A stretch of DNA of 64,000 bases from Candidatus Woesearchaeota archaeon (GTDB lineage: Archaea > Nanobdellota > Nanobdellia > Woesearchaeales > GW2011-AR9), in NCBI GenBank assembly GCA_018696595.1, contig JABHQW010000003.1, positions 241,907-305,906 of the forward strand. Reading direction: 5' to 3'. The position numbers and the translations under genes were made by a program. Positions 4,586-37,524 of the stretch are shown here, in pieces. Each line of letters begins with the position of its first letter. The stretch's first letter is position 1. A model generated the notes under the pieces. The model saw only the letters and a list, made by a program, of their open reading frames with translations, had not been told where the DNA came from and made no database searches.

Positions 4586-5080
4586 ATGGCTTATGCAGTA
4601 ACCCATATCATTCTAACAATCGTTGTCTTAGATTTATTTAGACATTATGTATTTGGAAAAAGAAGATTTCCGAGATATATGTTAGTGATTGGTGGGATTG
4701 CTGGACTTCTTCCAGACATTGATATTCCTCTTAGTTGGATTTATAATTTATTTACAGGACTCTCAGTTAATTTTCATGGTATGTTTACCCATTCATTAAT
4801 ATTCCCAATAATATTTGCTTTGATAGGAGTTATTTTCCATTTCAAAAAAGGGAATCATAAATGGGCAAAGATATTTTACATTATTGCTTTTGGATTGTTT
4901 TTCCATTCAATATTAGATTGTGCTTTTGGTGGTTACAAAACTTTCTTCTGGCCGTTCTACTTCATAAACTTCTGTCCACAATGGGGAATTGCTAGTTATA
5001 TGCAAAGTGTAGATGCAATTATATTAGTTGTTTGGTTGCTACATGAAGAAATACATAATAAGATCAAGGATTATATTTGA
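4586..5080 (+). CDS. Membrane-bound metal-dependent hydrolase (YdjM/DUF457-like)
   Basis: Small polytopic membrane protein with LLPDIDIPLSW and multiple His. Resembles the LexA-regulated YdjM family. Confidence 0.45.
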   Translation: MAYAVTHIILTIVVLDLFRHYVFGKRRFPRYMLVIGGIAGLLPDIDIPLSWIYNLFTGLSVNFHGMFTHSLIFPIIFALIGVIFHFKKGNHKWAKIFYIIAFGLFFHSILDCAFGGYKTFFWPFYFINFCPQWGIASYMQSVDAIILVVWLLHEEIHNKIKDYI

Positions 5081-6132
5081 AAATGAAAAAAGAGACAATT
5101 CCCGGAACTATCAGGATTCAAGTGAAAGGATTAATTCCTTATCAGAAAACTAAAACCTCTTGGAAGAAATGTTCTCAAAAGTTTCCCAAAGTAAAAGAGA
5201 TTGTTAAATTGTTTAAAGCACACAAAAACTTCAACATCCTAGTTGATAAAGTTAATCCAAGATTCCTTAAAGGACAATTGCTAAAAGGAAAAATTCAAGG
5301 TGCAAGAATTAACGTTCTTCCAGATGGAACAAAAATAGATAAAGCTTATTCTTTATTCGCAGACCATTTAACAGTTCATGATCAAAAGTCAAATGAACAT
5401 TGGGATGTTTTATATCAGAATCCTGGTGGAACGTGGGCTTATTGTTATTCTTTAGAAAAAAAAGCGAAAAACACTATTAAAAAATATAATAAAGTTCATC
5501 AATTTGATAAAGTTTATTCTAACTTAAACAAAAACGTTTCTTCAGCACTAAGAAATAAGAAAGATAACCTTGCCTTACCTATGTATACTTTATTGAAAAC
5601 AAGAATGAGAATTGGTAATGAAATTTATTATAAGTTACACAATCATAAAGGATTAACAACATTAAAGAAAAAAAATATTAAAATAAAAGGTAACAAAATT
5701 GAATTTCAATATGTGGGAAAAGATGGAGTCCCACAAGATGTTGTTAAAGAATTTCCTGTTTCTTACATTAAACGAATGAAAGAACATCTTAAAAAGATTA
5801 AAAGAGAAGATTTTGTTTTTGTTTCTAATTCCGGACACCCATTACCAGAGAAGGAATTCAAATTAGCTTTCAAGAGGTACTGCGGTAAAGAATTCTATCC
5901 CCATATAGTAAGATCTCATTATGCTACAAGTAAAGTTAAAAATTTCATTAAAGGTAAAAGAAAACTCAACAAAAAGGAAGTAAATAAGTTATATTTAGAA
6001 ATTGCTAGTTCTTTAGGGCATAAAAAGTTCTCAAAAAAAGATAATGTTTGGAAAGAAAGTTTCTCTGTTACTGTGGGACATTATATTGAGCCAAAGTTGG
6101 TTGAGAAGGTTAAAAAAATGGTTAGTAAATAA
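5077..6132 (+). CDS. DNA topoisomerase IB (eukaryote/poxvirus type)
   Basis: VGKDGV matches FLGKDS of human Topo I. RSHYATSKV matches KVFRTYNAS. GHYIEPKL matches the active-site SKLNYLDPRI. Start overlaps previous gene (ATGA). Confidence 0.7.
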   Translation: MKMKKETIPGTIRIQVKGLIPYQKTKTSWKKCSQKFPKVKEIVKLFKAHKNFNILVDKVNPRFLKGQLLKGKIQGARINVLPDGTKIDKAYSLFADHLTVHDQKSNEHWDVLYQNPGGTWAYCYSLEKKAKNTIKKYNKVHQFDKVYSNLNKNVSSALRNKKDNLALPMYTLLKTRMRIGNEIYYKLHNHKGLTTLKKKNIKIKGNKIEFQYVGKDGVPQDVVKEFPVSYIKRMKEHLKKIKREDFVFVSNSGHPLPEKEFKLAFKRYCGKEFYPHIVRSHYATSKVKNFIKGKRKLNKKEVNKLYLEIASSLGHKKFSKKDNVWKESFSVTVGHYIEPKLVEKVKKMVSK

Positions 6133-7683: not shown

Positions 7684-7821
7684 TGGGGCCGCGAAGACTT
7701 TCAAATTCTCTCTTGCGAAAGAATTTTTTGAATTCCAGGATTAATTATTAATCTCTCCGATTCCACGACTTCTGGTTTTGATCCCCAGCCGTGGGTGCTA
7801 ACCAAGTTACACTACGGCCCC
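7684..7821 (-). tRNA. tRNA-Pro(GGG)-like gene with introns in the anticodon loop and T-loop region
   Basis: Minus strand reads GGGGCCG-TA-GTGT AACTTGGTTA GCAC-C-CACGG CTGGGG[A..intron..]TCGTG-GAAT-CGGAG[...]AGT CTTCG-CGGCCCC-A. 7-bp acceptor, good D-arm with GG, anticodon stem restored after ~13-nt intron, T-stem CGGAG/CTTCG. T-loop atypical and interrupted by a ~55-nt insert ending TTTGAAAGT, shared with the other two tRNAs. Confidence 0.45.
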
Positions 7822-7868
7822 GATGAAGTCTAAGTAAAGAATCAATATATAAAATTTACTATAAGAAA

Positions 7869-15240: not shown

Positions 15241-15389
15241 TGGACTTGCCGAGACTTTCAAAAATAATTCCGCAGTGCGTTGGATTTTATATCCAACTCG
15301 CTCTTGCGTATCAAATGCGCGTAACCATTTGGTTGAACTCGGGTCCCACGGCTGCCAGCCGTGAATAATAGCCGTTATACTACAAGCCC
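15241..15389 (-). tRNA. tRNA-Ala(GGC) with ~75-nt intron in the T-loop
   Basis: Minus strand reads GGGCTTG-TA-GTAT..ATT-CACGG CTGGCAG CCGTG-GGAC-CCGAG TTCAA[intron]GT CTCGG-CAAGTCC-A. G3:U70 Ala identity pair present. Intact anticodon arm. T-stem CCGAG/CTCGG. Intron ends TTTTTGAAA. Confidence 0.55.
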
Positions 15390-15438
15390 AAAACAAAACA
15401 GAAATAATTAACCTACTATATATACATAACGGAAAAAT

Positions 15439-18220: not shown

Positions 18221-18793
18221 TTATTTATACTCTTCCATTAATGCTAATTTAGGATCTAATAATTCTTCAACCAAATCTGGATCCTCAAAATATGGGCCCG
18301 CAATCATAAAAACATAAATTTTGTCTCCTCTACGTATCTGAATAATATTACCAAAAATTTCATCATCATCATTCACTAAAAATGAAAAAAAAGTTTCATC
18401 ACCCAAATCAATAAAGTTTTCTTGTTCTTCTACTTTACTATCACCAAAATATGCGCCACCTTTGTAAGCCAGAATAAAGTTTCTGAAACTTTGTTTTGCT
18501 TCAGCCACATTTTTCTCAAAGTTAATAGATGACATGATCATTAACTGATCAACTTTTTCTATTTCAAAGGAATCGTATTCATATTCTATTTCAATAGACC
18601 CATCAGTATAAGCAACTTTATCATATTCTCCAATTTCTGCCAGATATGAAAGATCATAGTCTTGAAAATCTTCAACTGAAATTAATAAACCCTTTTCTTC
18701 TTCAGAAATAGATAAAGGGATACATCCACTAATAAAAAACATTAAGATTAACAAAATGGGGGTTATTTTCTTCATCAATACAGATTTAAACAC
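18221..18793 (-). CDS. Putative secreted lipoprotein
   Basis: N-terminal signal with lipobox-like FISGC, acidic mature domain. Confidence 0.4.
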   Translation of the reverse strand: MFKSVLMKKITPILLILMFFISGCIPLSISEEEKGLLISVEDFQDYDLSYLAEIGEYDKVAYTDGSIEIEYEYDSFEIEKVDQLMIMSSINFEKNVAEAKQSFRNFILAYKGGAYFGDSKVEEQENFIDLGDETFFSFLVNDDDEIFGNIIQIRRGDKIYVFMIAGPYFEDPDLVEELLDPKLALMEEYK

Positions 18794-36080: not shown

Positions 36081-36123
36081 ACAGTAATATTTATATAAGA
36101 TTTCTTGATTTTCTATGTTTATT

Positions 36124-36261
36124 GCCCCTGTGGCCTAGCGGTATGGCGTTGCATTGGTAAATCTTAACTTAGTTTTCGTTAAGTTCAAAGATGCAGAGAT
36201 CCCGAGTTCAATTTCCGTAAGGGAGTTACAAACCCTTCGTTTGAAAGTCTCGGCAGGGGCT
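36124..36261 (+). tRNA. tRNA-Thr(GGU) with two introns (canonical 37/38 and T-loop)
   Basis: GCCCCTG-TG-GCCT AGCGGTA TGGC-G-TTGCA TTGGTA[~31-nt intron with CTTAAC/GTTAAG hairpin]A TGCAG-AGATC-CCGAG TTCAA[~35-nt intron ...TTTGAAA]GT CTCGG-CAGGGGC-T, followed by T-run terminator. Confidence 0.55.
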
Positions 36262-36263
36262 CT

Positions 36264-36272
36264 CTTTTTTTC
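36264..36272 (+). terminator. Oligo-T tract downstream of tRNA (archaeal terminator)
   Basis: TCTTTTTTTTC immediately 3' of the discriminator base. Confidence 0.45.
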
Positions 36273-36306
36273 AATAAACTTTAAAAATAAAACCAACTTC
36301 TAAGCA

Positions 36307-36439
36307 TTGCTTATCTCATTAGGTATAGCTTAGCCCCTTTGTGGGCACTTTGCTTTCCAGTTACCCTTTACAGACCTAGTGCTGTATTTCGGGCCCGGGA
36401 GGATACCTTTTACAACAGCAACCCTTTTGAGATAAGCAA
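36307..36439. ncRNA. Candidate structured RNA closed by a 12-bp terminal helix
   Basis: TTGCTTATCTCA (36307-36318) pairs perfectly with TGAGATAAGCAA (36428-36439). Interior is GC-richer than surroundings (GGGCCCGGGAGG, GCCCC..GGGC hairpin). No ORF. Confidence 0.25.
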
Positions 36440-36453
36440 CTTAATTCTCAACA

Positions 36454-36600: not shown

Positions 36601-37524
36601 ATGCTAAATCAAATATCACAAGAAATTAAATCCATGATTAACAGTTTCTCTGCAGAAGATAATATAGTTTTCAATAACAAAGTCATCAGAATAAACAAAG
36701 ATAATTTCCAAGAGATAGTCCTAAATGAAAACAAAACACTAGCTTTCATCGATGGTGGACAAGCAGAGATAATCTCAACTGGAAACTTCTGCCTCTCTTT
36801 CATCAGAATAGCAGCTGTTTTCTTTCAAAACAATAAAAAAATCAACCAAATTAAGAAAGAATTCTATTTGTTTACTAAATCTAAATACTTAAACGAAGAT
36901 TTATACTATGAATCAAAGATATTTGGAAACAAAATAATCAATGAAGAAGATTTATTAATCTCTTCTAATGATTCCAGTATTAAAACAGGATCAGAACGAG
37001 CACCAATTTCTAAAATAACAAACATGGCTAGAAGATTTGCAGAATTATCTTTAGCAAAAGAAATCCAAGCAGACCACATTATCTTAGATGGTACTTTAGA
37101 ACCAACTTTTAAGAATGAAGAAAAATATATTCCCAATAATGCTTCAGCCCTAGCAAAATCATCATCTCTATTCACAACATCAGGAAATTCGCCAGTAATT
37201 CTCTTAAATAAAATAGGATTAAGTAATTGTTGGAGTTATTTCTTAGAGAATAAAACTTATTTTGTAAAATTGAATCAGAAAGCCAAACATGTCTTCCGAT
37301 TTGAAGGTAATAGAGAAGCTCTCCCCCATTTAGTTAGTAATTCTAAAGATGCTTTGTTCCTTGGTTATCCGTATGGATTAATCTTTGTGGATCAGATAGC
37401 TAGAGTTTCAAATTCTGAAAAGAATTCTTTGAAAATGAATTTCTTGTTGAGAAAAGATAATCAGGAAATTGCTGAGTATTTGTCTACGAGTAACGCCCAT
37501 GAGATATTGGATAATATTTCTTAA
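36601..37524 (+). CDS. Hypothetical protein, possible RNase H-like/NurA-like nuclease fold
   Basis: LAFIDGGQAEI near N-terminus resembles the first acidic strand of RNase H-like nucleases (NurA DGS). Weak. Confidence 0.35.
   Translation: MLNQISQEIKSMINSFSAEDNIVFNNKVIRINKDNFQEIVLNENKTLAFIDGGQAEIISTGNFCLSFIRIAAVFFQNNKKINQIKKEFYLFTKSKYLNEDLYYESKIFGNKIINEEDLLISSNDSSIKTGSERAPISKITNMARRFAELSLAKEIQADHIILDGTLEPTFKNEEKYIPNNASALAKSSSLFTTSGNSPVILLNKIGLSNCWSYFLENKTYFVKLNQKAKHVFRFEGNREALPHLVSNSKDALFLGYPYGLIFVDQIARVSNSEKNSLKMNFLLRKDNQEIAEYLSTSNAHEILDNIS

Follow-up and report, generated by a model that had tools for sequence, protein, structure and literature searches.

The 64-kb stretch of DNA analysed here (the window) contains three transfer RNA (tRNA) genes, for threonine, alanine and proline, each of which is interrupted within its T-arm. 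Judged from sequence, these are very probably three functional archaeal tRNA genes interrupted by introns of the bulge-helix-bulge (BHB) type: tRNA-Thr(GGU) at positions 37/38 and 59/60, tRNA-Ala(GGC) at 59/60, and tRNA-Pro(GGG) at 37/38, 53/54 and 59/60 (Table 1). A preliminary description of this DNA had proposed the three genes and their inserts; the coordinates and sequences are as it gave them, and when the inserts are removed in silico ARAGORN calls Thr(ggt), Ala(ggc) and Pro(ggg), in spliced models of 72, 72 and 74 nt, respectively.

In their interrupted form the genes are invisible to ordinary tRNA finders. ARAGORN, with or without its anticodon-intron mode, reports no tRNA on the whole 64 kb, and neither does Rfam at gathering score; even at E values up to 10, Rfam yields no tRNA in the whole window and only weak, chance-level matches. 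The Thr locus searched alone gives a partial Rfam tRNA match of 18.6 bits (gathering score 29), in which the anticodon intron is placed correctly and the T-arm is mis-aligned. A scan of both strands of the window for an intact T-arm, defined as a 5-bp stem with G53:C61 and a TTCRA-type loop, found none. All three tRNA genes of the window thus have an interrupted T-arm, and there is no further tRNA gene in it.

Splice sites were set by the archaeal BHB rule, in which a 4-bp helix lies between two 3-nt bulges. In the canonical motif at 37/38, positions 32-35 supply the exon strand of the helix, while positions 36 and 37 and the first intron base make up the 5' bulge. The equivalent of 37/38 in the T-arm is 59/60, with positions 54-57 in the helix. 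In all six window introns, 4/4 central-helix pairs and the 3-nt bulges fall in the predicted register. The minimum-free-energy folds (RNAfold) of the Thr and Ala T-arms likewise stack the T-stem on a TTCAA/TTGAA helix and leave the three nucleotides AGU bulged out of the 3' strand. The second Pro intron folds into a perfect 6-bp inner hairpin (GATTAA-TAA-TTAATC) that abuts both bulges, and the 13-nt Pro intron has no inner helix. T-rich stretches follow the genes (T7 after Thr and Ala, TTTATTT after Pro), and CCA is encoded in none of the three.

Table 1. Positions of the tRNA genes, their exons and predicted introns, and flanking elements in the window (^ marks a splice site; exon and intron positions follow tRNA numbering)
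Feature	Position	Strand	Evidence and remarks
TATA-like box TTTATATA	36090-36097	+	27-34 nt upstream of tRNA-Thr; putative promoter, from its position
tRNA-Thr(GGU), whole gene	36124-36261	+	acceptor GCCCCTG/CAGGGGC, anticodon GGT, T-stem CCGAG/CTCGG
Thr exon 1, 36 nt, positions 1-37	36124-36159	+	identical or near-identical in intron-less orthologues
Thr intron 1, 31 nt, 37/38	36160-36190	+	TTGG/TCAA, 3' bulge AG^A, inner helix CTTAAC/GTTAAG
Thr exon 2, 22 nt, positions 38-59	36191-36212	+	spliced model, orthologues
Thr intron 2, 35 nt, 59/60	36213-36247	+	TTCA/TGAA, 5' bulge A58 T59^T, 3' bulge AG^T60
Thr exon 3, 14 nt, positions 60-73	36248-36261	+	sequence; discriminator T, no CCA
T7 run after tRNA-Thr	36265-36271	+	sequence; terminator-like, putative role
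TATA-like box TATATATA	15417-15424	-	28-35 nt upstream of tRNA-Ala; putative promoter
tRNA-Ala(GGC), whole gene	15389-15241	-	G3:T70 present, anticodon GGC
Ala exon 1, 58 nt, positions 1-59	15332-15389	-	sequence, ARAGORN; includes G3
Ala intron, 77 nt, 59/60	15255-15331	-	TTCA/TGAA, 3' bulge AG^T60
Ala exon 2, 14 nt, positions 60-73	15241-15254	-	T70 pairs with G3; discriminator A
TATA-like box TTTTATATAT	7845-7854	-	24-33 nt upstream of tRNA-Pro; putative promoter
tRNA-Pro(GGG), whole gene, three introns	7821-7684	-	anticodon GGG
Pro exon 1, positions 1-37	7783-7821	-	ARAGORN, comparison with L086
Pro intron 1, 13 nt, 37/38	7770-7782	-	CTGG/CCAG, 3' bulge AA^G38; exactly missing in L086
Pro exon 2, positions 38-53	7755-7769	-	ARAGORN, comparison with L086
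Pro intron 2, 22 nt, 53/54	7733-7754	-	TCGG/CTGG (2 G-U), 5' bulge A52 G53^A, 3' bulge AA^T54; exactly missing in L086
Pro exon 3, 6-nt micro-exon TTCAAA, positions 54-59	7727-7732	-	ARAGORN, comparison with L086
Pro intron 3, 29 nt, 59/60	7698-7726	-	TTCA/TGAA, GCAA-capped inner hairpin, 3' bulge AG^T60
Pro exon 4, positions 60-73	7684-7697	-	ARAGORN, comparison with L086; discriminator A

Most of the earlier outline of the genes stands. The inserts are introns, canonical at 37/38 and non-canonical in the T-arm; all fit BHB motifs, and both Thr introns and two of the three Pro introns are missing from orthologues. The G3:U70 identity pair noted for tRNA-Ala is present. The Pro gene needed revision: its anticodon-loop intron is confirmed, and its T-arm insert is indeed intronic, but this insert is two introns placed around a 6-nt exon, so that the third intron of the gene had been missed. 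The stated insert length of 35-75 nt also falls short of the Ala intron.

Intron content of orthologous genes

The genes of the window, which has a G+C content of 30-34% throughout, are archaeal; a Pfam scan identified GatE, ATP-dependent DNA ligase, NurA, and Cdc6/Orc1-like, FtsZ and Rpo7-like proteins. The NurA protein (36601-37524) is identical to one recorded at NCBI for Candidatus Woesearchaeota archaeon, and all its relatives belong to Woesearchaeota or Nanoarchaeota and come from marine and groundwater metagenomes. The archaeal gene set and these NurA relatives point to a marine DPANN archaeon as the host, in line with the mention of DPANN in the preliminary description.

Alignment of NurA homologues gave access to 80 loci from other Woesearchaeota species (loci of related sequence are given L numbers here), and in most of them a tRNA-Thr(GGU) gene lies upstream of NurA. 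A census of 46 parsed Thr(GGU) genes, including that of the window, revealed a striking variety of intron states. Introns are absent from 8 genes and confined to 37/38 in 9, to 59/60 in 2, and to the D-arm or 5' region in 1. Two introns are found at 37/38 and 59/60 (9 genes), at the D-arm/5' position and 37/38 (9 genes), or at the D-arm/5' position and 59/60 (2 genes). A D-arm/5' intron and a 37/38 intron are further combined with one at 59/60 in 4 genes and with one at 53/54 in 2. Overall, 38/46 genes are interrupted and 17/46 have a 59/60 intron. The earlier opinion that such introns are unusual in an AT-rich genome therefore does not hold for this lineage, since these are AT-rich Woesearchaeota.

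The exons are conserved across these intron states. The first intron of the window Thr gene is missing from orthologues L014, L017, L023 and L058, and the second is missing from the intron-less orthologues. The intron-less gene of L023 differs from the spliced Thr model at only 4 positions, two of which form a compensatory D-stem pair. Intron-less Thr orthologues score 65-70 bits with the Rfam tRNA model (70 bits for L023), and because they are near-identical to the spliced gene they serve as a proxy for the covariance-model check that had been proposed for the cloverleaf.

For tRNA-Pro, the only diverged neighbour found was L086, in which a flanking protein is 76% identical. Its Pro gene has a 59/60 intron alone. 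The predicted 13-nt and 22-nt introns are exactly missing, leaving the anticodon loop CTGGGGG as predicted, while a homologous 59/60 intron of 31 nt is kept. Its T-stem carries G52:C62 in place of the A52:T62 of the window gene, a compensatory change. Based on the sequences of these Thr and Pro orthologues from Woesearchaeota, the reading of the inserts as introns is settled. The L086 gene is itself invisible to ARAGORN and Rfam, and so a single T-loop intron suffices to hide a tRNA gene. The ordinary finders used here, ARAGORN and (at gathering score) the Rfam tRNA model, detect none of the three tRNA genes of the window. Counts obtained with them for DPANN genomes will therefore underestimate the number of tRNA genes, a suspicion already voiced by Kaneta et al. 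(2018).

The Thr genes of L006 and L007 also have an intron at the 53/54 position of the Pro gene. When all loci were scanned for 53/54 introns the output was mostly noise, and only the window Pro gene and these two Thr genes are credible. L006 and L007 are the nearest relatives of the window, with a NurA identity of 92%. Their Thr(GGU) genes contain D-arm and 37/38 introns and a 19-nt 53/54 intron, have no 59/60 intron, and occupy another position, upstream of a gene for a cyclic nucleotide (cNMP)-binding protein (L006 4918-5060, L007 5407-5550). Both the introns and the positions of tRNA genes are thus indicated to turn over rapidly in this lineage. The place of the window Thr(GGU) gene is occupied in L006 and L007 by a tRNA-Thr with anticodon AGT (5671-5761 in both) and an 18-19-nt 37/38 intron; a gene of the same kind in L017 (4947-5038) scores 50.9 bits with the Rfam tRNA model. 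A34 is unusual in archaea. A34 tRNAs have been reported in ARMAN-4 and ARMAN-5 (Fujishima 2011).

Two other tRNA genes among the collected loci have unusual 3' regions. The Thr(GGU) gene of L062 (about 5105-5185, +) has an intact T-arm that is not followed directly by a matching 3' acceptor strand, and may contain a further intron near 65/66 or be truncated. In L035, the last 14 nt of a tRNA-Leu gene (5439-5681, +), TCTCCTCCCCCGCA, recur 78 nt downstream, and this repeat may have been left by an integration event at the 3' end of the tRNA gene.

The shared intron tail and alternative readings

In each of the three tRNA genes the 3' T-stem strand is immediately preceded by the sequence TTTGAAAGT (7697-7705, 15254-15262 and 36240-36248), as the preliminary description had pointed out. 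The 9-mer is not over-represented in the window, with 5 copies against 3.6 expected, and the two further copies lie inside open reading frames (ORFs). What is non-random is its identical placement in three tRNA genes, not its count. It contains TGAA, which pairs with T54-A57, followed by the AG bulge and then T60.

A scan of all loci yielded 34 credible 59/60 introns, in genes for tRNA-Thr, -Leu(UAA), -Ser(GGA), -Ala, -Pro and two others. All of them have T at position 60. The tail reads TGAA-AG in 21, and the rest are close variants (GGAA, AGAA, TGAA-AA). Among the 31 introns outside the window, 18 end in TGAAAG^T; these belong to Thr, Leu, Ser and other tRNAs of other Woesearchaeota and have unrelated interiors. 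A gene with a TTCG T-loop has a CGAA tail, a compensatory G57:C pair in the central helix. Inner helices of the 34 introns average 5.0 bp, compared to 2.4 bp in shuffled interiors. In the anticodon loop, the introns of Thr genes end in YCAA-AG^A, complementary to TTGG. Because the helix partner is the universally conserved T54-T55-C56-A57, TGAA and a 2-nt bulge are to be expected at the end of every 59/60 intron; the invariant T-loop, together with the lineage-wide AG bulge and T60, accounts for 7 of the 9 shared tail bases. The shared tail is therefore mostly a structural requirement and not evidence of mobility. This explanation of a common 59/60 tail should be useful in considering how endonuclease specificity and intron position co-evolve.

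The preliminary description had instead viewed the tail as the sign of a mobile or recently spread intron family, so that the three T-loop inserts would be copies of one intron and TTTGAAAGT a remnant of their common origin. This now appears highly unlikely. Two extra T's precede TGAAAG^T in all three window introns and in 6/31 others, a marginal excess (p about 0.04), and CGCAAGAG(C/A)GA is common to the Ala and Pro introns (p = 0.013 before correction). In addition, the T-arms of Thr and Ala are identical, and tRNA introns are known to have transposed in Thermoproteales (Fujishima 2010, as reviewed in PMC4090602 and PMC4033280). Nevertheless, TGAA is imposed by the pairing with T54-A57 and AG^T60 is the bulge found throughout the lineage, and otherwise unrelated introns end in this tail in many tRNAs and species. 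The intron interiors are not significantly alike (p = 0.43 for Thr and Ala, 0.31 for Thr and Pro, and the value already given for Ala and Pro), and the lengths of 35, 77 and 29 nt are unequal. The CGCAAG that is shared belongs to a GNRA-capped hairpin, a frequent convergent motif. No further copy of any window intron was found in about 0.96 Mb of related sequence, apart from the L086 Pro orthologue, and there the 59/60 intron has been inherited vertically with drift. A mobile intron family in the window is thus not supported by the sequences.

In favour of the preliminary description, sharing of an intron between tRNA species does occur elsewhere in the lineage, but for another intron family. 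A 46-nt 59/60 intron of Thr(GGU), TGCAGTCACTAGCGTTYGGYAYTTTCCTTCGCTATGGCTCGGAAAG, is present in L009 (5304-5348), L034 (5881-5926), L055 (5358-5403) and L060 (5638-5683). The four copies are 93-100% identical, compared to NurA identities of 84% for the pair L055/L060 and 58-67% for the other five pairs, so that the intron is more conserved than both the neighbouring protein genes and the surrounding tRNA stems, which differ. Two diverged variants retain the inner helix through compensatory changes. A metagenome scan with the 41-nt core found it in two contigs of one sample, Ga0180007 (L095 2321-2361 and L096 281-321, both on the minus strand). One contig carries a Thr(GGU) gene and the other a three-intron tRNA-Ile(GAU) gene, with the same T-arm and with introns that differ by 1 nt. 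Either this intron has been copied between tRNA species or it is functional.

The exact register of the T-loop junction also has to be considered. The preliminary description gave it as TTCAA^GT, which corresponds to 58/59 and a mature T-loop of TTCAAGT; the intron stands, and the junction consistent with the BHB rule lies one base further on, at 59/60 (TTCAAN^T). Both registers leave a 7-nt loop and an ARAGORN tRNA call, and TTCAAGT is the natural loop of one orthologue without introns, L051. The 58/59 register is nonetheless very improbable. It allows no 4-bp helix with 3-nt bulges, and it requires G as an invariant exon base 59, where intron-less orthologues mostly have A or T. The base after A58 is A, T or C, as expected for N59. 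The register at 59/60 is also favoured by the agreement between L055 (TTCAAT^T) and the intron-less L076 (TTCAATT), which have the same T-arm. Finally, 59/60 is the position shown experimentally in ARMAN-2 (PMC3239211).

It is scarcely credible that these are tRNA pseudogenes in decay, or genes disrupted by insertion, from which no functional tRNA is expressed. The rejection of all three loci by standard tRNA finders might suggest as much, as might the AT-richness of the inserts, which resembles that of the surrounding genome. Against this, the exons are intact and form perfect cloverleaves, the identity elements are kept (G3:U70, U73 or A73, and G37 in Pro), every insert lies within a BHB motif, and a TATA box and a T-run flank all three genes. 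No intact T-arm exists elsewhere in the window, and the interrupted architecture is maintained across dozens of species with compensatory exon changes. Self-splicing group I or II introns were rejected because inserts of 13-77 nt compare with a catalytic core of hundreds of nucleotides and no Rfam intron match was found at E values up to 10, and split or permuted tRNA genes are ruled out by the collinearity of the unspliced exons within 138-149 nt in all three genes.

Several observations weigh against the reading of the inserts as BHB introns of functional genes. The central helix at Pro 53/54 includes two G-U pairs and has almost no outer helix, and RNAfold prefers other pairings both there and at the anticodon introns. 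The T that precedes TGAA in the three 59/60 introns of the window could pair with A58, creating a 5-bp helix and thereby blurring the 5' bulge; this T is present in only some of the 34 59/60 introns, and because pairing of A58 is not conserved among them, the pattern fits A58 in the bulge. No Ala(GGC) orthologue occurs in any collected locus, five neighbourhoods of DNA-ligase homologues included, synteny around the ligase being lost even at 92% identity, and the case for the Ala intron is consequently drawn from its fold and the ARAGORN call. The T-stem and 3/4 central-helix pairs were selection criteria of the 59/60 scan, which makes the pair statistics partly circular; they were used only for the G57:C case and for the unconstrained columns (T60 and the AG bulge). 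Lastly, a Pfam scan of all 60 window ORFs that reach 150 amino acids found neither the splicing endonuclease EndA nor the ligase RtcB, and a tblastn search of the collected DNA with an approximate EndA query gave no match.

Other elements near the tRNA genes

The interval between tRNA-Thr and NurA contains a conserved candidate structured RNA of about 145 nt (window 36299-36445, +), with a TATA-like box 25-30 nt upstream. Copies are present in L006 and L007 (5809-5954), L017 (5754-5958), L008 (1840-1985) and L010 (6420-6569, -). It has a 12-bp closing helix, GCTTATCTCA.../...TGAGATAAGC, and its fold is Y-shaped (z about -3). Compensatory changes are seen at 11 of 29 predicted pairs. A covariance model built from three copies detected three more diverged ones at 40-61 bits, one of which is at another genomic place. 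The candidate has no Rfam match even at E values up to 10. 5S rRNA, signal recognition particle RNA, RNase P RNA, an H/ACA or C/D small RNA (sRNA) and a disrupted tRNA were rejected as identities for want of Rfam support and a matching fold topology.

Two weak Rfam matches to C/D-box small nucleolar RNAs are located at 18478-18547 and 18700-18782 on the minus strand of the window (27.8 and 27.4 bits; E = 0.15 and 0.97). Both are below the gathering score and lie inside a 190-amino-acid ORF with no Pfam match; they could be chance matches or archaeal C/D sRNAs. The window ORF at 5077-6132 (+) encodes the catalytic core of a eukaryotic-type topoisomerase IB (PF01028, E = 1.8e-14), an enzyme that is uncommon in archaea.

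Predicted splicing and comparison with known systems

Each of the three genes would be transcribed from its own TATA-type promoter, with transcription ending at the T-run. In the precursor, the four exon bases that come shortly before the 5' splice site would pair with bases at the 3' end of the intron, generating the 4-bp helix with its two 3-nt bulges. EndA would then cut after the second base of each bulge, and an RtcB-type ligase would presumably join the exons. CCA is presumably added after splicing, since it is not encoded. In the Pro precursor, the 53/54 motif would use T-stem bases 49-51 in its central helix and the 59/60 motif would use the whole T-stem as its outer helix. Because these two motifs are mutually exclusive, the T-arm introns are probably removed sequentially; we infer that the 53/54 intron is probably removed first, with the 6-nt exon staying attached rather than being released. 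As the preliminary description proposed, a splicing endonuclease of broad specificity, accepting non-canonical sites, has to be invoked for the T-arm junctions.

The anticodon introns of Thr and Pro fit the canonical archaeal 37/38 BHB intron exactly, with positions 32-35 in the helix and 3-nt bulges; the first two anticodon bases are in the central helix by the definition of the motif (PMC4090602). Interrupted tRNA genes are normal for this lineage and already described in related archaea. A survey whose genomes included one from Woesearchaeota has linked DPANN EndA enzymes with an L3 loop to numerous disrupted tRNA genes, and the incomplete tRNA sets of DPANN genomes led to the suspicion that disrupted genes go undetected (Kaneta et al. 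2018, PMC5829648). That genome, Ca. Woesearchaeota archaeon RBG_13_36_6, belongs to the same phylum-level group as the window and showed a marked increase in disrupted tRNA genes. The survey differs from the present analysis in giving proportions for one genome, with no positions, tails or orthologue comparisons; what is new here, from the same kind of data, are the window loci and the 46-gene Thr census. The known working of such introns is unchanged by these findings. The census does reveal a dense and fast-changing intron content, which should be useful for studying the evolution of introns and endonucleases.

The closest precedent for the T-arm introns is ARMAN-2, also a DPANN archaeon, in which the 59/60 intron of tRNA-Cys is cleaved in vitro by the epsilon2 endonuclease and the Pro(GGG) gene has 53/54 and 59/60 introns (PMC3239211). 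The likeness thus extends to a Pro gene with the same two T-arm positions and to 59/60 introns with a BHB or relaxed BHB motif, the comparison being one of intron positions. ARMAN-2 belongs to Micrarchaeota, whereas the window belongs to Woesearchaeota/Nanoarchaeota, and the window Pro gene has an extra 37/38 intron. The enzymes may also differ: that of ARMAN-2 is the three-unit epsilon2, and published work points to an alpha4 enzyme with an L3 loop in several DPANN lineages.

The second parallel is with Thermoproteales (Sugahara 2008; Fujishima 2010; PMC4033280, PMC4090602), where multi-intron tRNA genes are known and introns are likewise gained and lost rapidly between relatives. As in that group, one intron family is common to different tRNA species in the wider Woesearchaeota lineage, and the sharing of the 46-nt intron resembles, by analogy, the intron sharing described there. 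The Thermoproteales signature of transposition, near-identical introns in different tRNAs, was not seen among the three window genes. The settings differ as well: Thermoproteales are hyperthermophilic Crenarchaeota with GC-rich tRNAs and an (alpha-beta)2 EndA with a CSL loop, while the window comes from a marine DPANN archaeon with 32% GC.

It may tentatively be suggested, with the odds still against it, that Woesearchaeota, independently of the hyperthermophilic Thermoproteales, provide a second example of tRNA introns being gained, lost and copied from one tRNA species to another on a large scale and to this day. If so, the process would occur in mesophilic, AT-rich DPANN archaea with small genomes and a reportedly alpha4 endonuclease, an enzyme type classically considered strict. 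The window genes would then be a snapshot, the Thr gene having introns at 37/38 and 59/60 where that of its closest sampled relative (NurA 92%) has them in the D-arm and at 37/38 and 53/54. The genome-specific TTTGAAAGT tail would in that case reflect either local copying or an enzyme-specific recognition code consisting of the invariant U60 and the AG bulge.

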